From positions 32,133-96,132 of the forward strand of contig CAZXAQ010000003.1 in the NCBI GenBank assembly GCA_964638635.1: DNA of 64,000 bases. The letters are read 5' to 3'. How positions within the stretch are numbered: position 1 is the stretch's first letter; each line of letters starts with the position of its first letter. Origin of the DNA: an uncultured Flavobacteriaceae bacterium. GTDB taxonomy: Bacteria > Pseudomonadota > Alphaproteobacteria > Micropepsales > Micropepsaceae. Position numbers and translations under genes: made by a program. Positions 12,820 to 25,815 of the stretch are shown piece by piece. The notes under the pieces were generated by a model, which made no database searches, was not told the DNA's origin, and was given only the letters and a program-made list of their open reading frames with translations.

Positions 12820-13296
12820 TCAGGGCGCGGCGAATTCGCCGCTCAACGTGTCGAGCGCTGCGCAGAACGCCCCAAGGTCCTTGGAGGTCTCGAACGCGGT
12901 TGCGGCCGCGTTCACCTTCTTCACGCGAGAGGCAAGCACCTCAATGGTGATCTTGCCCGCGGCCGCATCGGCTTGCATGGCGGAGGTCAACTCGGCAACG
13001 CGCGCCTCCACATCCGCGCGCTCGCCGCACGAGCGGCCGCCGGTGAAAGCGGCGAAGCCAAGCGCAAGCACAAGAACGCCCGCGCCGCCGAGCGCGAGCG
13101 CCCGCGTGCGCCCCGACGCAGCCGCCCACGCCGCCGCCGCGCGCGCGTAGGTCTGGCGCGCTATGGTAATGATCCGGTTCAGTTCTGGATCTCGCAAGTG
13201 ACCGTCGAGCCGATGGTAGCCGTCGCGGTCCCGCCCAGACCGTCGGAGATCGTGTAGGTGACGGAACCGACCTGCGTCTGCACCGCCGTTAGGCAC
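12820..13296 (-). CDS. Hypothetical membrane-anchored protein (start uncertain)
   Basis: One TM segment (ALALGGAGVLVLALGFAAF). The only upstream start (GTG at 13296) overlaps the 3' end of the cadherin-like gene by ~118 nt. No ATG/GTG/TTG lies between 13179 and the TM segment. Confidence 0.3.
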   Translation of the reverse strand: MPNGGADAGRFRHLHDLRRSGRDRDGYHRLDGHLRDPELNRIITIARQTYARAAAAWAAASGRTRALALGGAGVLVLALGFAAFTGGRSCGERADVEARVAELTSAMQADAAAGKITIEVLASRVKKVNAAATAFETSKDLGAFCAALDTLSGEFAAP

Positions 13297-14612
13297 ACAT
13301 TGTTGTGCGTGATCGTCACCGAGGTTCCGTTCGTGCTTGCTGAGCCGTTCGTGGGTTGGGTAACGTTGGTAATCGTAAGCGCATTGTTGTCCGGATCGTT
13401 GTCATTGACACGCGGGTCGAAGGTCGCGGTCGGCTGCGTACCGTTCACGCCGCCCGCCTCATAGGTTCCCACCAAATCCACGGTGTCGTTCACCGCCACG
13501 GGCGGCGAGTTCGCATTCTGAATAGTCACGTTGACGGTCGCGGTTGCCGTCATGCCATCCAGATCGGTAATCGTGTAGGTGAAGCTGTCCGCGCCCGTCT
13601 GGCCGGTGTTCGGCGTGTAGGTGACGGACGTGCCGCCGTTGATCACGACCGTACCCTTGGTTCCGTTCGTCTTGGCCGTGATCGTGATCGTGCCGCTATC
13701 GTCGCTGTCATTCGTGCGCGGATCCGTCGTGAAAGCGGTGTTGGTCAGGGTGGTCCTGCTGTCGTTGACGGCGACCGGCGGCAGAGTGCCGTGCGTCACG
13801 GTGACGTTGACGGTGGCCGTCGCTGTACCGCCGTCCACGTCGGTGACCGTATAGGTGAAGCTGTCGGGGCCGGTGTAGTTTGCCGTCGGCGTATAGGCCA
13901 GCAAAGTGCCACCGTTTACGATCGTCAGCACACCATGCGAGGGCGTCGACTTCGAGGTGATCGTAAAAGCATCGCCGCCGGGGTCGCTGTCGTTTACGCG
14001 CGGGTCGAACGAGAAAACGAAGGTGTTCTTCGCCGTTGAAGCCACATCGTTCACCGCGACCGGGTCCAGATTCGCCAGCGTGACCGTAACTTCGCCGGAG
14101 GCATCCATGCCCTGCCCGTCCGTAATCGTATAGACGACCTTGTCCGTCGCGTTGCGCTTGTATGTACTTGAGTACGTAACGGTCGTGTTGCCGCCGGAGA
14201 GGGCCGCCGTTCCATAAACACCGTTGCCGACACTGAACAACGTAAGCGGATTCCCATCGGGATCGCTGTCGTTCGTGCGCGGATTCAGCGTCAGCGAATT
14301 CTGATCCTCGGTCAGCGTCACCGCATCGCCGGCCGTGACCGGCTTCCGGTTTACCGTGGTCGCCGAAACGATGTGCTGCGTTCGGTTTCCGGCAGCATCA
14401 TATTTGTAGACGATCTGCTTTCCATCGTCGTAGCGCACCGAAATGATGCGCCCGAGCGAGTCATAAGAATATGTGGCACCCGCCAACGCCGACCCGGCGA
14501 GCACGCACGCCGCGCCCGCAAGCAACGCCGATCGTCGCACGGCAGGAAAACGCAAAACCGAGGAACGCAACGCCGGTACTGGAGGCTGTGCGAAACGCAT
14601 GCTGCTCTCCAT
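13179..14612 (-). CDS. Secreted protein: two N-terminal YD repeats + four ~95-aa cadherin-like (tandem-95 type) repeats
   Basis: Start at MESSMRF (14612; alternative 14600). ATYSYDSLGRIISVRYDDGKQIVYKYDAAGNR is a YD-repeat signature. Then 4x PVAVND...DPR.NDSDPDG..LTI...G...Y.P....G.DSFTYT..D..G..ATATVNVTV. Confidence 0.8.
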   Translation of the reverse strand: MESSMRFAQPPVPALRSSVLRFPAVRRSALLAGAACVLAGSALAGATYSYDSLGRIISVRYDDGKQIVYKYDAAGNRTQHIVSATTVNRKPVTAGDAVTLTEDQNSLTLNPRTNDSDPDGNPLTLFSVGNGVYGTAALSGGNTTVTYSSTYKRNATDKVVYTITDGQGMDASGEVTVTLANLDPVAVNDVASTAKNTFVFSFDPRVNDSDPGGDAFTITSKSTPSHGVLTIVNGGTLLAYTPTANYTGPDSFTYTVTDVDGGTATATVNVTVTHGTLPPVAVNDSRTTLTNTAFTTDPRTNDSDDSGTITITAKTNGTKGTVVINGGTSVTYTPNTGQTGADSFTYTITDLDGMTATATVNVTIQNANSPPVAVNDTVDLVGTYEAGGVNGTQPTATFDPRVNDNDPDNNALTITNVTQPTNGSASTNGTSVTITHNNVCLTAVQTQVGSVTYTISDGLGGTATATIGSTVTCEIQN

Positions 14613-15062
14613 GACGGATGCTGATCGATGATCGCGCACACTGTACGCGCGCAATTGCGAACTGTGAAGACGTCGCGCACACGACGTTGAAGATTTTCTT
14701 GCCGATGAAGTTGCGTTCGCAGTTGCTCGCTTATCGCTGCGCGCAATCAAACTTGTCGCGCGCAAAACACAATTGACATTGCGAAGAGTTGGCGCACACT
14801 CCGCCAATCGTACGCACGCATGCCGATGGCGTACGCTTCGCCTTCGTTCAGTTGCGTTTCAGTGTGTTTCCTTCGTTCTTTAAAGAGGTTCACGCATGAC
14901 GCCGGCACACGCTCACGGACATATCGCGACTTTCGTGCGGAAAAACACGTTCTCAAGTCCGCCATAGCCGCCTCTTTTCAAACGACCGGAACCAACAAGC
15001 GAGCGCGCACGACTGCGCCTCGCAACGAGCACCTTTGCGCATCAGCAACACAGAGCCGAACA

Positions 15063-18000
15063 ATGCCAACGCTCACATTCTCAAGGTTTTTCGCGATTTC
15101 CGCGCTCGTTCTCGCAGCCGCGAGTCCTGCGCACGCACTGCCGGAGATGAGCGTCGGCACAGGCTTCGCGGTCACCCCCGCGCAGGCGCTGACTTACTAT
15201 ACGAACCAAGGTCTTACGAGCCCCGCGTGGACGGAAGATCCGGAGCTCGACAGGCTGGCGACCGCGCTGGGCAACGATCCCGACAAGATTTACGAGTACG
15301 TCAGAAACGAAATCGACGTCGTTCCGCTCTTCGGCGTGCAAGCGGGCGCGCGCGGCTGCTACATCGACAAGGCTTGCACGCCGTTCGATCAAGCACAATT
15401 CATGGTCGAGCTGCTGCGCTCCGCCGGCGTGACCGCGAGCTATCAACTCGGCACCATCACGCTAACCGGCACACAGTTCGACCAGTGGTTCGGTCTCACG
15501 AACCCAACCGCCGCGCGCAAGTTGCTGGCCGACGGCGGCACGCCTTACACGATGACGGACAACGGCACGTCCGTGACGTCCGTCACAATGATGCATGTCT
15601 GGGTACGCGCGACGATCGGCGGCACGACCTACTCGTTCGACCCAGGGTTCAAGCCGCACACGGTGACGACCGGCATCAACCTTGACACCGCGATGGGCTT
15701 CAACAGCGCGACGTTCTGGTCGAACGCGATCAGCGGCGCCTCGACCTCGACCACCAATAACACACCACGCGTGAGCAACCTGCACCGCACGAACGTGCGG
15801 AACAACTTAGGCACCTACGCCACGAACCTGCTCAATTACATCACGGCCAACCTCCCCAACGGCTCGATGGACAACGTGATCGGCGGCCGGACGCTAACGC
15901 CGTACGCCGGCCCCGCGCTTCGCCAGACCACGCTGCCCTACCAAGCAAGCACAACGCAGCTGTTTACGGGCGACTTGCCCCTGGTGCTGCGCAAACGCGT
16001 GACGATCGTCGGCAGTTCGACGACGTACAACGCCCCGCTCGACGAGTTTTTTGGCAAGCAGATAACGTTCGAACTGAACAGGGAAAACCCACCCCCGGGT
16101 GGCTTCACACAATACCGATTCCTCATCGGCGAACAGGTCGTCACCAATTGGACGAACGGCACCGTTGGTGGTGCGGTCATTACCATCAACAACCCATACG
16201 CCGCCGGAAACAGCGCCGGTGTCTTCGATGGCGCCTACATGGATCGCGCCGTGCCGCTGACCGGCTCGAATACGACCGGCGTGCAACTCTTCGTCGCCGC
16301 CGGACGCGTGTCCGGAGACTATGGCGCCTATCAGGAGCGCGTCCACAGCGGACGCAGCGGTATCGTGATCTACCAGAAGGCCTGCTGTCACGAAGAGGGA
16401 CAGGGCCAGTGGGTTGAGCCGCAGCAGATCGCCCTGCGCCGGCGCATGGGCGCAACATTCATGTCGCAGTTCTGGGACATGACTCAACTCGTTGGCGGCG
16501 TCGGGAGTTCCATCGTTTTGGTGCACGATGTCGTGGGTATTGCCACGACCGCACGCGCTGAAGCCGGCGACTCGGAATCGCCTGTCGCCTCGTCGTTCAT
16601 GTTCAGCATGGAACCGGCAATCTCGGCACTCTCGAGAACCGGGATTACGACGCAGCCGCCGATCGTCGCTCGCACGGTCGCGATGATGCTATCCGCGCTT
16701 GAGGGTAGCGTGGCGCAGCAGGCTGGCGACTCGGTCTTTCCGGTGTCGGCTGTCGTCCAGCTCGATTGGGCCCACGCCGGACCGGCAGCCGCCGACCGTT
16801 GGTACTACTATGCCACCTCGGCAAACTGGAACTCGTTCGCCAGATCGCAGATTCTGCTCGATTACGACCCGAACCCAGGCCCCGGCACATCACCGATCCG
16901 CAATATCGCAGACGGTTACATCGCCGCGGGTTGGACGGTCATGATCCCGCGCTCCTCTTTCTTGGGCCCGGGCCTTGCGGAGCAGCAGTACTGTGTCCCC
17001 TACGAGGTGCAAGGACAGATGATGTCATGCAAGATCGCCGGACCGGATCGCGCCGGCGCTCTGATCGCCATAAACCCGACGACCGGTGCGGTCGCGCACA
17101 TCTCGGCACGCAACTATCTGTACGGCAAAGGCGGCGGCGGATCGACGGACGCCGAGACCAATCCGGCGCGCATTTTCACAATCGCCGAGGGCTTCCTCGA
17201 CAAGCAATTCTCCTCGCGCGCCGAAGCGCATAACGTCGACTTGAAGTCCGGCATGATGACCTATACCCCGCCGCCGGATATCACGGTCGGCAACGGCGGC
17301 TACCCTTACAGCCTGTCGTTTCAGAGGTCCTATCGCTATCAACACAACAGCGACGAGGACTACTGGGATGCTCAGAATCCAGCCAACCCAATGGAACCCC
17401 CAGATACGGTCGCTCGCGACGACATATTCACCACGACAGGGTGGACTTCAAACCTTCATCACTATGCGTCGATCACCTCAGACGGTGCGAAGGTATTCGG
17501 CCAAGACGACCCGCGCGTCGCCGTGCAAACGCTGGCGACGGCGAGGGTCTTGTTGTCGATCATGGGCAACGGCACGACCAATCTCGAAACCCTCCAGCGC
17601 CAGATCGTCGGCGCCTTTGCCGGCTTCTGGTGGACCGAGACGATTCTGATGAACACGGTCACGGTGAAGCAAGGTCATTCGAGCCGCAGCTTCACCAAAT
17701 TGCACGACGGCACGTTCACGGCCCGCGGGAGCGCGGAGACGGTGGAGGTTTTCGGCTCGCGCACGATTTATACTGGATTCACCGTGATGGGAGGCGGCGC
17801 ACCCAGGTGGGGGTACAATTTCTGCGTCCGCATAACGGGCGCCCAACGCGACGTCACGATCTACGGGAACTTCAACGGCACGAGCTGCAGCACGCCGCCC
17901 CCCAGCAACATCGTACCGAGCGGCGGCAATACCGGCGACATGATGTTCTCCACCCAGACGTTCCCCTACGGCATCACCGTTACGTACGACCGGTTTAACA

Positions 18001-21000
18001 AGAAGCTCTCGAACAATTTGGGCCGATGGATCAGTTTCTCGGGAGGACCCGCGACAGGTGGCGGCGCCATGGTCACGACGAGCGCCGGCGGTTTGGTGAC
18101 GTTTGCGGCGACCGAATCGGTGAACAACAGCGGCTATGTGCCATCGCTCACGGTCACCAATGGAGGCGTCTGGCAATACGTTGAAGACATGAACCGAACC
18201 TTCTTAGAGGTACGTCCGCCATCTACGCCGAATGCGCATTGGATGCGGTATGAGTATCAACCCGGCACGTTCGGCGTTGTCGAGAAAATCAAGGACGCGC
18301 TGAACCAGACGACGACGTACAATCTGGGCGGCGGCCGCGCCGCCTCGGTCGCCGACCCTCTCGGCAACACCACGAAGACGCTGCACGACAAGTTCGGCAA
18401 CGTCGTCCGGATTGAAGACCCGCTCGGGCGTGTCGCGAAGACGGAGTACGACAACTTCCGGCGCAAGGTGAAAGTCACGGCGCCCGAGGGGAACTACGCC
18501 ACGTACGCCTACGATGCGAAGTCGAACGTGCTGACAACGGCGGAGTTTGTGAAGCCTGGGTCGCCGACGCTGCCCTCATCGCGCACCGCAACGAAAACCT
18601 ATGACGCAGTGTGCAATGTCCCGCTGACGGAAACGGATTTCGGCGGCCGGACGACCACGATGGCGATCAATCAGACCACGTGCAAGGTCACGTCGGTGAC
18701 ACAGCCGCTCGTTGGCGGCGTGTCACCGGTTACGACCTACACCTACAACACGCTTGGTCAGGTGACCCAGAAGACGGACCCAACCGGCCTTGTCACGCAG
18801 ATGAACTACAACAGCCCACCGGGCTGCGGCACGTCGTGCACTTCGAACGGAAACTTGGAGAGTGTGATCGTGAACCCCGGCGCGGGCAATCTCGCGATCA
18901 CCACCCTGTTCGGCTACGACGCCTGGGGCAACATCACCACGGTCACCGATCCGCGCGGCTTCGTCCATACGGGCGAGTACGACGCGATGCGCCGTCTAAC
19001 GCAGTACACAGCCCCCACCGGCACGAACGCCGTCACGAAATGGACCTACGACGTCGACGGGCTCGTCTCGAAGATCGAGCGCGCGGCCAACGCCGCGAAC
19101 ACGGTCTGGGCGACGACGCAGTACAGCTACTACGCCACCGGCCGCGTCGCCTCGATGACCGACGCCGACGGGCGTGTCACGCGCTACACCTACGACGCGG
19201 CAAACCGGCTCGTCTTCACGATCGATCCAGAGGCGCGCCAGACGAAGAAAATCTACGACGCCGCAAGCCAAGTCATCGAAGAGCGCCGCGGCGTCGGCAC
19301 GCCGGACGAACAGGCCTATGCGACGTTCGCCTACACGCTGAACGGCAAGCAGTCCTGGATCAAGGACGCGAAGCTGAATCAGACGAGCTATACGTATGAC
19401 GGTTATGACCGGCTGACCCTCACCACGTTCCCCGACGCCACGCACGAAGACCTCGTTTACAACGTGACAGACAAGGTCACGTCAAAGCTCACGCGCGGCG
19501 GGCAACAGATCGTCAACACTTATGACGCGCTCGACCGGGAGGTGACGCATCTGGTGCCGCAACCGGGCGCGGCACCCGCAATCCTCACCACCACAACCTA
19601 CGACCTGGCCTCCCGCGTGACGAGCAAGAGCGACAACACCGGGCACAGCCTGACGTACGCCTTCGACACCGCGAAACGCCCGATCTCGGTGACGCAGGCC
19701 GCCCCCACGTTCGCCGGCACCCGCGTGGTCAGCTACCTGCTCGACCTCGCCGGCAACAAAACGCGCACAACCTGGGCCGACGGCTACTACGTGCAATACG
19801 CCTACGACGCCTTGAACCGGATGACGACGGCGACGGAGAACGGCACGTTCCTGCTCTCGACCTACATCTACGACACGCTGTCGCGGCGCACGAGCCTCAT
19901 CTATGGCAACGGCGCGAGCCAAGGGTACACTTACTCGACCCAGGGCGACCTGGTCACACTGGCAAGCACGCTGACCGGCGCAAGCAACACATACACCAAC
20001 ACCTTCTCGCTCGCGCATCAGTTGGCGAGCGAGGCGGCCAGTAACGCGGCCTGGCAATATGTCCCGGCAGCATTCCAAACGACCAACTACGCGGCCGCGA
20101 ACAACCTTAACCAGTACGTCAACATCACGGTGGGCCTGAACCCCACGGTCACGATGGCCTACGACGCGAACGGCAACTTGACCGGCGACGGCGTGTGGAC
20201 GTTCGCCTACGACGCGCAGAACATGCTACGCTCATCGACCAGTGCCGCGAGTACGAGCACCTATCAATACGACCCGCTCGGCCGGCGGCAGATGCTGACC
20301 GAGGGCGGCGTCACGACCACATTCCTGCACGACGGGGATGAGGAGATCGCGGACTACAGCGCTGCCGCCGCGGTGCTCAGGCGCTACGTGCCGGGGCCGG
20401 GCACGGACATGCCGATCGCGATGGTGACGCCGTCGGGCGGCAGCAACCTGCGAAAATACTTTCACACGAACCGCCAAGGCTCGACGATCGCGATGTCGGC
20501 CGACGACGGGACGATGGCCGAGGGGCCGTACACATACGACGCCTACGGCAATGGCGCACCGGCAACGGGCGTGCCGTTCAAGTACACGGGGCGCAGGTTG
20601 GATGCGGGGACGGGGTTGTACTATTACCGGGCGCGATATTACTCGGCGGCGCTTGGGCGGTTTCTGCAGGTTGATCCGGTGGGGTATGAGGATCAGATGA
20701 ATTTGTATGCCTACGTCGGGAATGACCCTCAGAACAAGAATGACCCCGATGGAGAGTTCGCCAACATATTGATTGGTGCGGCTGTTGGCGCAGCACTTGA
20801 GTATGGCAGCCAAGTTGTTGAGAATCTGGCGAAGGGTCAAAGCATCTCGGACGCGGCGCAGAATGTTGATTTGGCAAAGATCGGGATCTCGGCATTGTCT
20901 GGCGCAGTCGGCGCGGGGATAGCGAGCAAGGTAGAAAAACTAGGCAAAATGGCGCAGCTCGGCGCCGAGGCTCTCCAGAGTGCCGCAACAAAAGCCGCCA

Positions 21001-21305
21001 AGGGAGAGGAAATATCGATAGAAAGCGTTGGGGCTGACGTGTTGGGTGGCAAGGCACTAGCCCCTGTCGGCGCGAAGGTAGGGGCCAAACTGGCCGGGAA
21101 AAGTAACGTTGTCACCGATGAGGTGAAGAAGCGCGCGAAGTTTCCTGGCAGTGCCCGTGACAAAGCACGGCTAGAGGTCGGAGAAAAGATGGACGCCGAA
21201 AGAGCGGCTAAATATGGGGCGGGCGGCGGCGCTGTGGGATCAGGTATCGGATCGAGCGCGGCGGGCGTCAGTGTTAGCAGTGACAAAGAAAAACAAAACA
21301 AATGA
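15063..21305 (+). CDS. RHS/YD-repeat polymorphic-toxin-type protein with Sec signal peptide, N-terminal transglutaminase-like core and variable C-terminal domain
   Basis: ATG at 15063 ([25 protein letters not shown]). Transglutaminase-like Cys-His-Asp pattern: [21 protein letters not shown] ... MMHVWV ... YSFDP. Dense YD repeats from ~18.3 kb. RHS core end [47 protein letters not shown]. Confidence 0.95.
20760..21302 (+). other. RHS C-terminal variable (putative toxin) domain, 181 aa, glycine-zipper-like and Lys/Ala-rich
   Basis: Begins directly after DPDGEF: [16 protein letters not shown]...[16 protein letters not shown]...[24 protein letters not shown]...[21 protein letters not shown] here is visibly less GC-rich than the RHS core. 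Confidence 0.6.
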
Positions 21306-21321
21306 CAATCTTGGTGCGACG

Positions 21322-21663
21322 ATGCGGGATAATGTAATCGAGAAAGTCATACTCGCGATTCTATTTCTGGTGGTCGCATGGTCTATGGTTAGGCAGGGCG
21401 CCCCACAGGCGGTCGCTGTGTTCGCAGCCTTCCTTCTTCTGGCATACGGCACTGGAATGATAATTTGGTCACCGAAGCCTACGTCCGAGTGGCGCGGATG
21501 GTTGGCAATCGGAGGCGGCGCAACTATCGCACTGTATTTGCAGTCAACGACGGTTGCGCTCTATGCGGGACTGGCGCTGGTAGGGCAACTGGTTGCTCGA
21601 TTGTTAGGAATTTGGCTCTTTCCACGCGAAGCTAGAGATGACACCGACGAAGATAAAGAATAG
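21322..21663 (+). CDS. Small polytopic membrane protein, candidate cognate immunity protein
   Basis: ATG at 21322, 16 nt after the RHS stop. About 4 hydrophobic helices (VILAILFLVVAWSMV, AVAVFAAFLLLAYGTGMIIW, WLAIGGGATIALYL, ALYAGLALVGQLVARLLGIWLF). Same low-GC composition as the RHS C-terminal domain. Confidence 0.6.
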   Translation: MRDNVIEKVILAILFLVVAWSMVRQGAPQAVAVFAAFLLLAYGTGMIIWSPKPTSEWRGWLAIGGGATIALYLQSTTVALYAGLALVGQLVARLLGIWLFPREARDDTDEDKE

Positions 21664-21748
21664 AAGAAGCACGAATATGTTCTATCTTTGAGCGCGACCG
21701 CGCAAGAATTCCGAGGGACGCGACTGCTACGCGCCCCTCTGCACAGAG

Positions 21749-21878
21749 GCGGAGGAATCGGGGTCAGAGCGGAGGAATCGCGGGGTCAGAGCGGAGGAAT
21801 CGGGGTCAGAGTAGATTTTGCTCACTCAATACCGAGACAAAATGAACCCCCTACCCCTGGAAGGAATCGGGGTCAGAG
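21749..21878. repeat. Tandem direct repeats of GCGGAGGAATCG(CG)GGGTCAGA (3 adjacent copies) plus a 4th copy 50 nt downstream
   Basis: Copies at 21749-21768, 21769-21790 (2-nt insertion), 21791-21810 and 21859-21878 (GGAAGGAATCGGGGTCAGAG). An AT-rich imperfect hairpin ATTTTGCTC..GAGACAAAAT lies between copies 3 and 4. Confidence 0.8.
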
Positions 21879-21905
21879 TCGACTAGCTACGGATGCACCA
21901 GCCCC

Positions 21906-22409
21906 CTACCCCTGCTTCCGCACAAACAACAACCGCACGCGCCCCGTCGGGTCCGTTTCCGTCCACGCGTCGCCGCCGCGCATGCCTTCGGCCCAGCCCA
22001 GCATGTCCTTCTCCGTGCGGTAGAACAGGTGCCAGTCGCAGATGAACTCCATCGGCCACAGATTGCTGAGCTCGGTCTCGTTCATGTTGCCCACGATCAA
22101 GAGCCCGCCGGGCGCCAGCCGCTCGTAGAGCCGCGCCGACAGCGCGCGTGCGCGCCGGTCGATCAAATAGTCGATCAAGCTCACCGAATAGATCATGTCC
22201 TGCGGCCCCGCCTCGTCGAGCCATGACCCGCCGCGCAGCACGTCGCTGAACGACACGTTGATCGGCTTGACCTTCGCCCCGGGCTTGGCCTTCAGGGTCA
22301 GCGGATGCGCGTGATCGAACGCATAAGCCAGCGCCGCCTGCTCCTGGTCGATCAGCGTGAATTCCGCAGGCCCCGCTGGCGCCGCCGGATCCTTCGGCAA
22401 ACGCATCAC
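21906..22409 (-). pseudogene. Truncated paralogue (C-terminal ~165 aa only) of the PilZ-like/SAM-methyltransferase gene at 23783..25231
   Basis: FTLIDQEQAALAYAFDHAHPLTLK...GGLLIVGNMNETELSNLWPMEFICDWHLFYRTEKDMLGW...TETDPTGRVRLLFVRKQG aligns residue-for-residue with the C-terminus of the 544-aa ORF. It lacks the LGCGSA SAM motif and everything N-terminal to it. Confidence 0.7.
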
Positions 22410-23782: not shown

Positions 23783-25231
23783 CTACGCCGGCTTGCGCGC
23801 GAACAGCAACCGCACGCGGCCCGTCGGGTCCGTCTCCGTCCACGCATGCGCGCCCGGCATCCCCTCGACCCACCCCAGCATGTCCTTCTCGCTGCGGTAA
23901 TAGAGGTGCCAATCGCAGATGAACTCCATCGGCCACAGATTGCTGAGTTCGGTTTCGTTCATATTGCCGATGATGAGCAGTCCGCCCGGCGCAAGCCGCT
24001 CATAGAGCCGCTGCCCGAGCGTCCGTGCGCGCCGGTCGATCAAATAGTCGATGAGCCCGACGGAATAGATCATGTCCTGCGGCCCGGCGTCGTCGAGCCA
24101 CGCACCGCCGCGCAACACATCGGTGAACGACACGTTGATCGGCCGCACGCTTGCCTGCGGCTTCATTTTCAGCGTCAGCGGATGCGCGCGATCGAACGCG
24201 TAGGCTAGCGCCGCCTGCTCCTGATCGATCAGCGTGAAAGCGACCCGGCCTTGCGGCGCGTTCGGGTCCTTCAGATGCAGCTCCACCTCGCGCGCCGAAC
24301 CGCAGCCGAGGCTCATGATCCGCGCCGGCGTGCCGTTCGCGCGCGAACGCACCACGTCGTCGATCACCTTCTTCACCACATGCATGCGCGTGCCGATGCA
24401 CTCCGCCACGTCGAGCCCGACGCGGTGCATCAGCTGCGAATAGACGTCGCCGCCTTCGCGCTGCCAATCGTAGACATAGTTCATGATCTCGAAGTCGCCG
24501 GGATACCCCGCCGGCTTGAAATAGCTGCGCCACCACACGGGGCCGTGGTTCAACTCCGGTGTCAGGACGAGCTCGGTGTATTCCTTCACCGCTTCGAGCC
24601 GCTTCTTGTCTTCCATCACCGGCGCGACCAGCTGATTGCCCGCGCGCCACAGGCTGCGCCACTGCGGAATGATCCGCTCCGCGCACATCTCGTAGGCTTC
24701 GTCGACGCTCAGGCCCGTCGACTGATGCGGAAACGGTTTCACGCTGGTCTCGACCACCGACCGGTAGGCGCGCAGGAAGCGCAACACATCGGCGCAATGC
24801 GCCCGGTACTCTGCCGGCACCAGCCCGCTCACATGCGGATCAAGCGTCGCCAGCTGCTGCGAAATCCGCGCCTGCGCGTTGCGCCGCAAGAGGGAGTGAA
24901 AATCCACGACGTCGTCGATGAGATTGAGCGCGACTTTCGGCCCGAACACCGACCGCTCCGTGCGCACGACCTTGGCCTTGCCCTCAAGGATCGAAAGCCC
25001 CGCTTGCTTGACCGCGATCGGCACGATCTCGCCGGTTTCGACCGCCACATCGACAGTCTGATTGGCGTTGACGCAAATGCCGGTCAGGCTGATGTCGCCA
25101 AGCCGGAAGGCCGCCCCTTTGACGTAAACCTTCGGCGGCGTACCGGAAAACAGCTCAGCCGCGTCGTAGCGTTTCGGCCGGAAAAAGATCTGTCGGCCGC
25201 TTGCGCCCTTCAGCTCCTCATACGCCAGCAT
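23783..25231 (-). CDS. PilZ-like N-terminal domain fused to class I SAM-dependent methyltransferase
   Basis: N-terminus ...RQIFFRPKRYD...(24 aa)...RLGDISLTGI has DxSxxG present but an imperfect RxxxR half. C-terminal half has IMSLGCGSAREVE (motif I) and GGLLIIGNM. Start could be ATG 25231 or an upstream TTG/GTG. Confidence 0.75.
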   Translation of the reverse strand: MLAYEELKGASGRQIFFRPKRYDAAELFSGTPPKVYVKGAAFRLGDISLTGICVNANQTVDVAVETGEIVPIAVKQAGLSILEGKAKVVRTERSVFGPKVALNLIDDVVDFHSLLRRNAQARISQQLATLDPHVSGLVPAEYRAHCADVLRFLRAYRSVVETSVKPFPHQSTGLSVDEAYEMCAERIIPQWRSLWRAGNQLVAPVMEDKKRLEAVKEYTELVLTPELNHGPVWWRSYFKPAGYPGDFEIMNYVYDWQREGGDVYSQLMHRVGLDVAECIGTRMHVVKKVIDDVVRSRANGTPARIMSLGCGSAREVELHLKDPNAPQGRVAFTLIDQEQAALAYAFDRAHPLTLKMKPQASVRPINVSFTDVLRGGAWLDDAGPQDMIYSVGLIDYLIDRRARTLGQRLYERLAPGGLLIIGNMNETELSNLWPMEFICDWHLYYRSEKDMLGWVEGMPGAHAWTETDPTGRVRLLFARKPA

Positions 25232-25404
25232 ATTCCCCTCGCGCGCGAATTTCACTTGTTCGCTCAATGAAGTAGGCTCCTTCCTATAGCGATGATCCGT
25301 GTGCTGAGAAAGAGACGCGCGCGCATTTCGCAACCAATCGTAAACTGTGGTCTGCCACGGTAAACGCCGTCTTAACCTCGAACCTGCCGCTAGTGTCACG
25401 TTCC

Positions 25405-25815
25405 ATGAGCCAACCAAAGCTGACCGTCGATGCCGTCGTCTTCGACAGGACCGGTCGGTTGCTCCTCATCAAGCGCAAGTCGCCGCCGTTCAAAGGTTGC
25501 TACGCGCTGCCGGGAGGCTTCGTGGAGCACGGCGAAACCGTGGAAGAAGCCGCGCGCCGCGAACTGAAAGAGGAAACCGGCGTGACCGTAGAGTCACAGC
25601 GCTTGGTCGGTGTTTACTCTGACCCCGGTCGCGACCCGCGCGGCCAAGTCGTCTCGATCGCCTTCCTCATGAAAGCGCGCGCGGCCAGGCCCACCGCCGG
25701 CGACGATGCCGCGGCCGCCGAATTTGTGGCCGACTGGCGCTCGAAGCCGCTCGCGTTCGATCACGCCAAGATCGTCGCGGACGCGATCGCGCTTTTGCCA
25801 AAGAAGGCCCGATGA
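25405..25815 (+). CDS. NUDIX hydrolase
   Basis: Nudix box GGFVEHGETVEEAARRELKEETGV. Confidence 0.9.
   Translation: MSQPKLTVDAVVFDRTGRLLLIKRKSPPFKGCYALPGGFVEHGETVEEAARRELKEETGVTVESQRLVGVYSDPGRDPRGQVVSIAFLMKARAARPTAGDDAAAAEFVADWRSKPLAFDHAKIVADAIALLPKKAR

Follow-up and report, generated by a model that had tools for sequence, protein, structure and literature searches.

The window, i.e. the whole stretch of 64,000 nucleotides that was analysed, carries on its forward strand a large RHS gene (nt 14820-21305; 2161 aa as listed) followed by a short ORF for a candidate membrane protein. The RHS gene was assigned from the ORF list and its translation together with Pfam and NCBIfam searches. Pfam RHS_repeat matched in eight stretches (E 1.2e-46). 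The NCBIfam matches were RHS_core, YD_repeat_2x and Rhs_assc_core; TIGR01643 was found in seven stretches, and a weak match to Pfam Transglut_core covered aa 154-269. Rhs_assc_core (TIGR03696) extended from aa 1906 to 1978 (E 3.7e-21) and ended at NDPDGEF. The protein has shell repeats, a core with a DPxG-(18)-DPxG signature and a variable tip, as is the case in YD/RHS-repeat polymorphic toxins. Its true start is likely the internal Met82 (nt 15063), and the letters from there on read as a putative Sec signal peptide. Pfam detected no PAAR domain in the RHS ORF. No Hcp, VgrG or Tss genes were present among the window ORFs scanned, i.e. the neighbours of the RHS gene and the other large ORFs, which are housekeeping genes. 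Neither the PAAR-like N-terminus nor the VgrG partner of T6SS delivery was thus detected in these scans; this concerns the RHS carrier and not its tip.

The C-terminal tail and the downstream ORF

The RHS core ends with a two-aspartate autoprotease motif, DPVGY-(18)-DPDGEF (nt 20673-20759, forward strand), placed by the end of the TIGR03696 match and the translation. The cleavage motif of Tse5 is DPXGL-(18)-DPXGL, and the mutations D1141A and D1164A abolish cleavage (PMC9637101, PMC10684867). By analogy, the motif in the window suggests that the tip may be released by autoproteolysis after DPDGEF. Past this point the reading frame stays open over exactly 181 aa (nt 20760-21302; the stop codon is at 21303-21305); length and position of the tail were as given in the original prediction.

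The tail consists of two modules. Module A (tail aa 1-58; nt 20760-20933, forward strand), as delimited by AlphaFold2, family alignments and a module-A HMM, is a helix-loop-helix hairpin with many small-xxx-small motifs. AlphaFold2 placed its helices at residues 2-24 and 38-55, with block-mean pLDDT values of 76-93 over aa 1-50. Both are moderately hydrophobic (mean 0.9 and 1.5), and the family alignments identified G6, G10, [D/E]14, Q18, D37, S44, G48 and G53 as conserved. Module B (tail aa 59-181 plus stop; nt 20934-21305, forward strand) was delimited by alignment, a module-B HMM, hydropathy and AlphaFold2. It comprises amphipathic helices, in which the motif GE.[IV]....V.DV.GG..G is conserved, and a hydrophilic, basic helical region of R..R.A.N..R type, together with a segment rich in Gly and Ser and an end of the KEK type; it contains 21 K+R versus 15 D+E. 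Overall the tail model had a pLDDT of 57, and module B was all helical at low confidence. Over residues 106-150, where hydropathy averages -1 to -1.9 in the family, the tail is basic and hydrophilic. Most of the tail outside module A is thus not membrane-like, which corrects the original reading.

By itself the tail had no match in Pfam or NCBIfam, and a single-sequence phmmer search of the PDB returned nothing at E<=10. In these searches no enzymatic motif was recognised, as had been claimed. Foldseek of the tail model, which is of low confidence outside module A, against the PDB gave no match at E<1 (best E 4.2).

The four Gly/Ala-rich stretches that had been quoted as glycine zippers were all found in the tail. 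The pattern [GAS]xxx[GAS]xxx[GAS] occurred 22 times versus 14.7 +/- 3.6 in composition-preserving shuffles (P ~0.03), whereas strict GxxxG occurred 5 times versus 3.8, which was not significant. The tail contains 44% G+A+S, and its 'zippers' come mostly from this composition. Despite the composition effect, G6, G10, G48 and G53 are invariant or nearly so throughout the family. None of the Pfam glycine-zipper families matched the tail.

Sixteen nucleotides past the tail stop an ATG at nt 21322 opens a 113-aa ORF (nt 21322-21663, forward strand) which, by its homologues and AlphaFold2, is a candidate immunity gene for a protein with four hydrophobic helices and an acidic C-terminal tail. The AlphaFold2 helices span residues 2-24, 28-49, 53-72 and 78-99 (mean pLDDT 63), in agreement with the original call of about four TM helices; a Kyte-Doolittle scan picked three of them. 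Both reading frames, tail and ORF, are intact. Homologues of the ORF with the start codon kept were P0002 (100%), P0003 (79%) and P0004 (54%). Orphan copies of the gene without an upstream toxin also exist, which is usual for immunity genes. The 113-aa protein belongs to no Pfam or NCBIfam family, and ten candidate immunity proteins likewise had no match in these databases. A DUF3592-type identity of the downstream ORFs was unsupported by Pfam.

A low-GC, probable toxin/immunity cassette at the 3' end of the RHS gene

Tail and ORF lie in a low-GC island (nt 20622-21900), as defined by GC and by a change-point in third-position GC (GC3). It includes the last 46 core codons, the tail, the candidate immunity gene and a repeat-bearing spacer. 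The cassette (nt 20760-21663) has a GC content of 55.6% versus a window mean of 62.8% (SD 2.6). This is within the lowest 0.16% of 904-bp windows, and tail and ORF lie where the window is poorest in GC. GC3 was 57% in the tail and 54% in the 113-aa ORF versus 81% in the RHS core. That both are less GC-rich than the RHS core and the flanks was thus correctly predicted. The GC3 change-point mapped to about nt 20622, where GC3 drops from 0.88 to 0.59 (log-likelihood ratio 28), inside the conserved core-end motif YYYRARYY and 46 codons upstream of the tail. Beyond about nt 21900 the GC content is back at 0.60 or above. At the distal edge of the island is a spacer (nt 21745-21880, forward strand) in which the 16-mer GGAATCGGGGTCAGAG occurs three times unaltered, against 0.05 expected, and once as a variant.

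In metagenomes, the RHS core ends most similar to that of the window (73-83% identity) bear unrelated tails, and 83 related tails fell into 58 clusters. The pair of tail and ORF was found again on an independent contig (L023), where a 32%-identical homologue of the 113-aa ORF follows a 51%-identical tail (P0005). The identical cassette was on one contig only, of 1.9 kb. Contigs with an identical MFS gene end before the RHS tip, which left the orthologous locus of related strains unrecovered. The compositional break, the unrelated tips on the closest cores and the recurring tail/ORF pair support the original proposal that a tip was swapped together with its cognate immunity gene. On the best reading, the 3' end of the RHS gene is a toxin/immunity cassette that was exchanged horizontally; as a polymorphic-toxin cassette, the locus is an ordinary one. 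Its position in the same island and the pair in L023 mark the 113-aa ORF as the candidate cognate immunity gene.

The tail family and its relation to Tse5-CT

A word-indexed protein search with the tail returned one weak match. The family set stems from an exhaustive HMMER search, which yielded 84 related clusters at 50% identity. The alignments span aa 4-178, and conservation is position-specific over the whole 181 aa. In every complete sequence with visible preceding residues the family match directly follows a DPxG-type RHS end. The module-A HMM matched 120 of 123 family proteins and the module-B HMM 84, 81 of these together with module A. In over 100 protein clusters module A comes after the RHS cleavage motif, and in about two thirds of them it is joined to module B. 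Elsewhere it is fused to an HNH nuclease (P0019) or to several other C-termini that are not module B, some of which look REase-like when read by eye. Because module A is common to HNH-nuclease and other tips, glycine zippers alone are no sign of a pore former. The N-terminal zipper hairpin was the main cue of the original reading, but the same hairpin precedes the HNH nuclease and other C-termini with soluble neighbours.

With a narrower hairpin alignment 11 genome loci were obtained, all from Bacteroidota. The species of the window is apparently absent from the genome representatives, since its EYGSQVVEN fits the scanned pattern. Neither Pfam nor NCBIfam holds a curated model for the tail, the family members or Tse5-CT beyond the RHS models, and the roughly 120 related clusters have no Pfam/NCBIfam label except 'RHS repeat-associated'. 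An SseC identity for P0076 (E 5e-4) was below the cut-off and was dismissed as compositional.

A profile of 30 family tails was run against all PDB sequences. The C-terminal fragment of Tse5, Tse5-CT (8cp6_C), was the sole match below E=1 (E=0.018). In the PDB searches only the family profile, not the single-sequence search, reached Tse5-CT. Against the module-A HMM Tse5-CT scored 26.2 bits, while none of 5000 shuffles of matched composition exceeded 12.4. The resemblance of its C-terminal half to module B was weak (10.9 bits, attained by 4 of 5000 shuffles). An hhalign comparison with Tse5-CT gave E 2e-4 at a probability of 46%, and BLASTP gave 28% identity over 87 columns (E 5e-4). Tse5-CT keeps G6, G10, Q18, S44, G48 and G53; position 14 is Glu in both Tse5-CT and the window tail. 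This indicates that the tail is a remote homologue of Tse5-CT, solidly so for module A and suggestively for the C-terminal half. The label 'uncharacterised family' is thus apt in that no curated model exists, but not with respect to experiment: Tse5-CT was shown to form ion-selective pores, to insert into lipid monolayers and to depolarise cells, an effect that the two-TM membrane protein Tsi5 reverses (PMC9637101, PMC10684867). However, since module A also precedes HNH and other C-termini, homology in module A alone does not transfer the pore function.

The neighbouring genes were compared between tips with and without module B. In ten of ten module-B loci (module B at E<1e-3; TM segments called by a simple hydropathy scan) the gene next to the tail encodes a small protein for which TM segments are predicted. 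The neighbours of five module-A tips with an enzyme-like or other C-terminus are devoid of TM helices. For the resulting table, 10/0 versus 0/5, we calculated a Fisher exact P of ~3e-4. The immunity proteins beside different family members are mutually non-homologous. Membrane-protein immunity is a known pattern for membrane-acting toxins, e.g. Tsi5 and the CdiI proteins of CDI ionophores (PMC11630599).

Mode of action and comparison with known systems

We consider it probable, on balance, that the cassette encodes an RHS-encapsulated, autocleaved, membrane-depolarising toxin and a cognate membrane immunity protein. A membrane-targeting effector, as originally proposed, is also the best reading of the remote homology to Tse5-CT and of the membrane neighbours at all ten module-B loci. 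The 181-aa C-terminal fragment would be held in the RHS shell and cut after DPDGE/F by the aspartyl-protease motif of the shell. Once delivered, it may resemble its distant relative Tse5-CT in attacking the cytoplasmic membrane of the target: the hairpin of module A and the amphipathic module-B helices would enter the bilayer, form ion-conducting pores and thereby collapse the membrane potential. The 113-aa four-helix protein in the inner membrane would shield the producer, probably through intramembrane binding of the toxin.

Unlikely, yet deserving serious attention, is that module A is a delivery device only, serving for anchoring in the cage, for release or, as a hairpin comparable to the Tde1 zipper or the CdiA-CT entry domains, for membrane translocation. 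Basic module B would then be toxic on a specific membrane-associated or cytoplasmic target without a pore, and the membrane immunity protein would intercept it. This would agree with the presence of module A on the HNH nuclease, on other C-termini and on tips with soluble immunity-like neighbours, and with the hydrophilic, basic character of module B and its conserved R..R.A.N..R motif. Further, the first 27 residues of Tse5-CT, with the start of module A, are its sole ordered part inside the Tse5 shell (PMC10684867), and the Tde1 glycine zipper, which permeabilises the inner membrane, is needed for entry and translocation and not for killing (PMC10240207). Yet Tse5-CT combines module A with a short, basic half resembling module B, and is a pore former with no other known activity (PMC9637101). 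Moreover, a membrane protein is encoded downstream at each of the module-B loci, whereas no enzymatic or nucleic-acid-binding family was detected in module B.

It is very improbable that the tip represents low-complexity sequence, either decayed or without toxicity, beside an unrelated small membrane protein: the G+A+S content, the unenriched strict GxxxG, the low AlphaFold2 confidence over two thirds of the tail and the lack of a curated family could be so read, but 84 related clusters with position-specific conservation along the full 181 aa, the tail/ORF pair kept at 51% and 32% identity, ORF homologues with a conserved start and the intact frames speak against it. Equally hard to credit is an RHS protein whose targets are eukaryotic cells, as with TccC (Tc-toxin) or teneurin-like proteins, and not bacteria; the putative Sec signal peptide, the missing PAAR, the lack of T6SS genes among the window ORFs scanned and the TccC and teneurin-like shells that the PDB contains as relatives of the core end would fit, but the homologue Tse5 is antibacterial (PMC9637101). 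An adjacent, co-transferred, conserved immunity-type gene and its orphan copies make sense only if the toxin is able to harm bacteria.

Beyond the probable membrane-depolarising toxin at this locus we tentatively propose, with somewhat more doubt than conviction, that Tse5-CT and the window tail belong to one uncurated superfamily of RHS tips with at least 120 clusters, mostly from Bacteroidota and some from Proteobacteria. The hairpin of about 58 aa would be a portable membrane-insertion or translocation module that forms a pore with module B and carries HNH or other nucleases across the target inner membrane. If true, RHS toxins possess a generic, self-contained entry device, and roles can be assigned to the parts of Tse5-CT. 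How RHS toxins enter or cross the inner membrane of the target is a poorly understood process. To our knowledge, Tse5 has so far been an isolated RHS pore former with no relatives described; the locus places Tse5-CT into a broad family with two separable modules. Because one hairpin is combined either with module B and membrane immunity or, at the loci examined, with HNH and other C-termini and soluble neighbours, the roles of hairpin and cargo are directly testable. For genome annotation, about 120 unlabelled clusters argue for a family model.

Among known systems, pore-forming colicins and pyocin S5 are likewise membrane-depolarising toxins countered by small inner-membrane proteins. In colicins the pore domain folds into a globule of ten helices and about 200 aa, inside which a hydrophobic hairpin is buried, an architecture unlike that of the window tail. 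Membership of the tail in the colicin type was rejected: Pfam had no match at E<=1, the PDB profile search no colicin match and Foldseek nothing better than E 4.2. For the originally drawn comparison with colicin pore formers no homology was thus found. Tde1, a T6SS DNase of Agrobacterium, shares with the module-A/HNH fusions a GxxxG-rich helical segment ahead of the nuclease. It is not an RHS protein and is likened to module A as a functional analogue. CDI ionophores (CdiA-CT EC93 family) have a comparable tip in two parts, in which a helical, membrane-active portion rich in small residues comes after an N-terminal module; their small immunity proteins, polytopic in the membrane, are pair-specific and highly polymorphic (PMC11630599). 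They differ in CdiA/CdiB delivery and VENN demarcation, whereas the window tip has an RHS cage; their ionophore domain is predicted to be a hydrophobic bundle of five helices, in contrast to the largely hydrophilic module B. No CdiA-CT-like sequence was among the Pfam and PDB search matches of the tail.

The closest known system is Tse5/Tsi5 (PA2684, P. aeruginosa). Differences are evident. Identity to Tse5-CT is only ~28%, over the hairpin. The window tail is 32 aa longer, and its GE.[IV]....V.DV.GG..G segment is unaligned with Tse5-CT. From the cleavage motif to the start of the hairpin the distance is 4 residues, compared with 15 in Tse5-CT. The candidate immunity protein has four helices versus two predicted TM regions in Tsi5. 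Finally, Tse5 has a PAAR-like N-terminus and is linked to VgrG1c and the H1-T6SS, whereas the window RHS protein has a putative Sec signal peptide and an N-terminal region of ~1100 aa. In common are the RHS shell, the DPxG autoprotease motif and a C-terminal fragment of 149-181 aa that is free of enzymatic motifs. This fragment has a homologous N-terminal hairpin with invariant G, G, D/E, Q, S, G and G, continues into a basic C-terminal half with weak resemblance to module B and has an acidic/Lys end. In both systems a small integral membrane immunity protein, a candidate in the window, is encoded adjacent to the toxin (PMC9637101).

The RHS tip and its downstream gene

The RHS gene is listed as an ORF of 2161 aa (14820–21305, forward strand). 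It contains eight RHS-repeat matches (Pfam) and an RHS-associated core domain whose last residue is aa 1978 (NCBIfam). Translation reproduced the predicted arrangement exactly. After the core end DPDGEF the reading frame continues for 181 aa (nt 20760–21302, forward strand; stop codon at 21303–21305), and 16 nt after the stop a 113-aa ORF starts on the same strand (ATG at 21322, end at 21663). In an AlphaFold2 model of the latter (mean pLDDT 63) helices span residues 2–24, 28–49, 53–72 and 78–99. All four are hydrophobic, in agreement with the approximately four transmembrane helices of the original prediction. For the tail, searches of Pfam, NCBIfam and, with the single sequence, the PDB were all empty, in keeping with the claim that it carries no recognisable enzymatic motif. 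Every Gly/Ala-rich stretch quoted from it was found. Small-xxx-small triplets were modestly enriched (22 vs 14.7 ± 3.6 in composition-matched shuffles, P ~0.03); strict GxxxG motifs were not (5 vs 3.8).

At the other end of the gene (14820–15140, read from the sequence) a Met located 81 codons inside the listed ORF is followed by a typical Sec signal peptide. This internal Met appears to be the real start of the RHS protein. The N-terminal region is long; a weak transglutaminase-like match is the only other N-terminal match (Pfam). Pfam detected no PAAR domain in the RHS protein, and no T6SS genes were present among the approximately 20 window ORFs scanned; the gene is surrounded by housekeeping genes. 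Its divergent neighbour (13179–14807, reverse strand) encodes a single RHS repeat and, after it, four Big_9/cadherin-like domains (Pfam E 1e-63). The product may be a partner of the RHS protein or an adhesin.

Exchange and borders of the cassette

Tail and 113-aa ORF together (20760–21663) have a GC content of 55.6% compared to a window mean of 62.8% (SD 2.6). This is within the lowest 0.16% of equal-length windows. At third codon positions the GC content is 57% for the tail, 54% for the 113-aa ORF and 81% for the RHS core, which bears out the lower GC content claimed for tail and partner. A likelihood change-point analysis placed the GC3 break at nt 20622, within the conserved YYYRARYY motif at the core end. 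Background GC is regained near 21900.

Comparison of related loci for replacement of the sequence after the core end as a unit yielded unrelated tails on related cores. In the metagenomic loci L025–L029 the last 287 core residues are 73–83% identical to those of the window RHS and the tails are unrelated. The 83 tails of related cores fell into 58 clusters; the N-terminal part of our tail (module A, aa 1–58) occurred in 4, the remainder (module B, aa 59–181) in none. Taken with the GC3 break, these unrelated tails support a cassette in which the final ~46 core codons, the tip and the putative immunity gene were exchanged jointly.

Among tail homologues P0005 is the closest (51% identity over aa 4–178). 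Directly downstream of it, in locus L023, lies a homologue of the 113-aa ORF with 32% identity over 65 aa, the length contained in the contig. Therefore, the pair is conserved as a unit. On the strength of the GC3 break, the unrelated tips on 73–83% identical cores and the pair in L023, the prediction of a swapped toxin tip with its cognate immunity gene stood; the locus is a real, typical polymorphic-toxin cassette. Metagenomic homologues of the 113-aa ORF with 100, 79 and 54% identity share its start. Those with 79% (L002, 170–523) and 54% identity (L003, 407–724) have no toxin tip upstream and are orphan immunity genes; the latter adjoins a gene for a ParE toxin as well as a small ORF upstream.

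At 21745–21880 the 16-mer GGAATCGGGGTCAGAG is present in three exact copies (0.05 expected) and one variant, in a spacer between the immunity gene and a truncated paralogue. These repeats may be a REP-like element at the distal cassette boundary. The paralogue, a 167-aa ORF just past the low-GC island (21906–22409, reverse strand), is 84% identical over 160 aa to the C-terminus of a 544-aa ORF located 1.4 kb beyond (23783–25417, reverse strand). Neither these two ORFs nor a 350-aa ORF between them had a Pfam match. Metagenome contigs with the neighbouring MFS gene end at the site of this paralogue pair, which is consistent with a repeat there.

A tail family of two modules

A word-indexed protein search with the tail retrieved one weak relative; an exhaustive HMMER search, covering 1.84 billion representatives, retrieved 84 clusters at E<=1e-3. 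In every complete sequence with visible preceding residues an RHS end of the DPxG type precedes the match by a few residues. Several matches are complete RHS proteins, 1358 to 3003 aa long. Module A has the consensus [IL][IV]GAxVGAxx[DE]YGxQVxxNLxxGxSxxDAxxNVDxxxIxISAxxGAVGxGIASK; G6, G10, D/E14, Q18, S44, G48 and G53 show no or almost no variation in the family alignments. AlphaFold2 modelled it as a helical hairpin (block-mean pLDDT 76–93 over aa 1–50). Module B opens with amphipathic helices which bear a conserved GE.[IV]....V.DV.GG..G segment, followed by a hydrophilic basic region (R..R.A.N..R type), a Gly/Ser-rich segment and a Lys/Glu end. Of the 123 proteins collected, 120 matched the module-A HMM, 84 the module-B HMM and 81 both.

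In the remaining module-A proteins other C-termini replace module B. In P0019 this is an HNH endonuclease (Pfam E 1.4e-7); further partners, in our reading of the sequences, appear to include REase-like and several unlabelled domains. Therefore, the glycine-zipper hairpin is a shared pre-toxin module and by itself no mark of a pore former. It was this hairpin that had originally drawn attention; the quoted stretches are real and the key glycines conserved.

Two further tip types were noted. In three metagenomic RHS loci (L048, L088, L104) module A is followed by a Gly/Ala-rich region and a Cys..Cys end (..DGSC). The module-B HMM did not recognise this type; each tip precedes a small ORF for which several TM segments are predicted. 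The tips of L012, L013 and L016 as well as P0013 and P0061 join module A to a conserved C-terminal domain (KFTKTTEVRPGxGxGQSRAVFxRVKNAxG..SYDxxNK) which has no Pfam match. A conserved soluble protein of ~110 aa comes directly after such tips, and the two are probably an unlabelled enzymatic toxin/immunity pair.

Neighbours of the tips were compared in family loci gathered from genomes and metagenomes, with TM calls by a simple hydropathy scan. In all ten module-B loci (E<1e-3; the window, L007, L008, L010, L011, L014, L015, L019, L023, L024) the next gene encodes a small protein for which TM segments are predicted, arranged either as two to four TM helices or as TM-beta-TM. In all five loci where module A is joined to an enzyme-like or some other C-terminus (L012, L013, L016, L018, L022) the next protein lacks TM helices (Fisher exact P ~3e-4, by our own arithmetic on these hydropathy-based calls). 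A lysine/asparagine-rich tip subtype (n = 4), not recognised by the module-B HMM, has neighbours with an N-terminal hydrophobic segment; that of L020 stayed below the hydropathy threshold of 1.6. The membrane neighbours of module B have no visible homology to each other and no Pfam family match. Such mutual dissimilarity is as expected for polymorphic immunity proteins. L024 (5001–7349), from a 2.5-Mb metagenome contig, carries an orphan tip with both modules (P0007), preceded by a transposase. Another orphan tip, which has an Ntox28 domain, comes after it, and genes for type IV secretion (TrbI, CagX) are nearby. The multi-TM ORF after P0007 (5636/5798–5989) is absent from the source annotation.

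Relation to the pore former Tse5-CT

All 177,635 distinct PDB sequences were searched with a profile built from 30 family tails. The sole match below E = 1 was 8CP6 chain C, the 149-aa toxin fragment Tse5-CT of Pseudomonas aeruginosa (E 0.018). G6, G10, Q18, S44, G48 and G53 are kept in the alignment, and acidic position 14 is Glu in both Tse5-CT and the window tail. The module-A HMM scored Tse5-CT with 26.2 bits (best of 5000 composition-matched shuffles, 12.4; reversed sequence, −3.0), the module-B HMM with 10.9 bits, a score equalled by 4 of 5000 shuffles. With hhalign, E was 2e-4 at a probability of 46%, the template being a single sequence; BLASTP of the window tail gave 28% identity over 87 columns (E 5e-4). 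At the level of sequence, homology of the two hairpins is well supported; for the basic C-terminal halves it is suggestive only.

In experiments, Tse5-CT is freed by the RHS aspartyl protease, inserts into lipid monolayers, forms ion-selective pores and depolarises cells without gross permeabilisation; Tsi5 is its inner-membrane immunity protein with two predicted TM regions (PMC9637101, PMC10684867). Relatives of Tse5-CT do not appear to be described in either publication, and Tse5-CT lacks a model in both Pfam and NCBIfam. Thus the label of an uncharacterised family holds for the databases, yet not for experiment because Tse5-CT has been characterised.

On balance we favour a membrane-depolarising, RHS-encased and autocleaved toxin with a four-helix immunity protein. 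The RHS shell would encase the 181-aa fragment, which would then be released by autocleavage. After delivery it would enter the cytoplasmic membrane of the target and abolish its potential in the manner of Tse5-CT. Neutralisation in the producer's membrane would fall to the four-helix protein. The pore reading has weak points. Homology to Tse5-CT is firm only for module A, which also fronts an HNH nuclease; module B is mostly hydrophilic and basic; and the AlphaFold2 tail model is poor past the hairpin, with no Foldseek match in the PDB. In the main rival reading, module A would serve only to anchor, release or translocate the tip, and module B would strike a different target, located at the membrane or behind it. 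What has been shown for the glycine zipper of Tde1 (PMC10240207), together with the entry domains known from CDI toxins (PMC11630599), makes this a serious, if rather unlikely, alternative to depolarisation by the tail.

The family picture is more interesting than the locus itself. Tse5-CT is no orphan, and its N-terminal hairpin is a portable module, found in front of an HNH nuclease and further C-termini as well; the module architecture merits a curated family model. Compared to Tse5, the carrier RHS protein differs by its Sec-type signal peptide, a long N-terminal region and the lack of PAAR, and the putative four-helix immunity protein looks unrelated. The tail itself is best regarded as a relative, distant and longer, of the pore former Tse5-CT.
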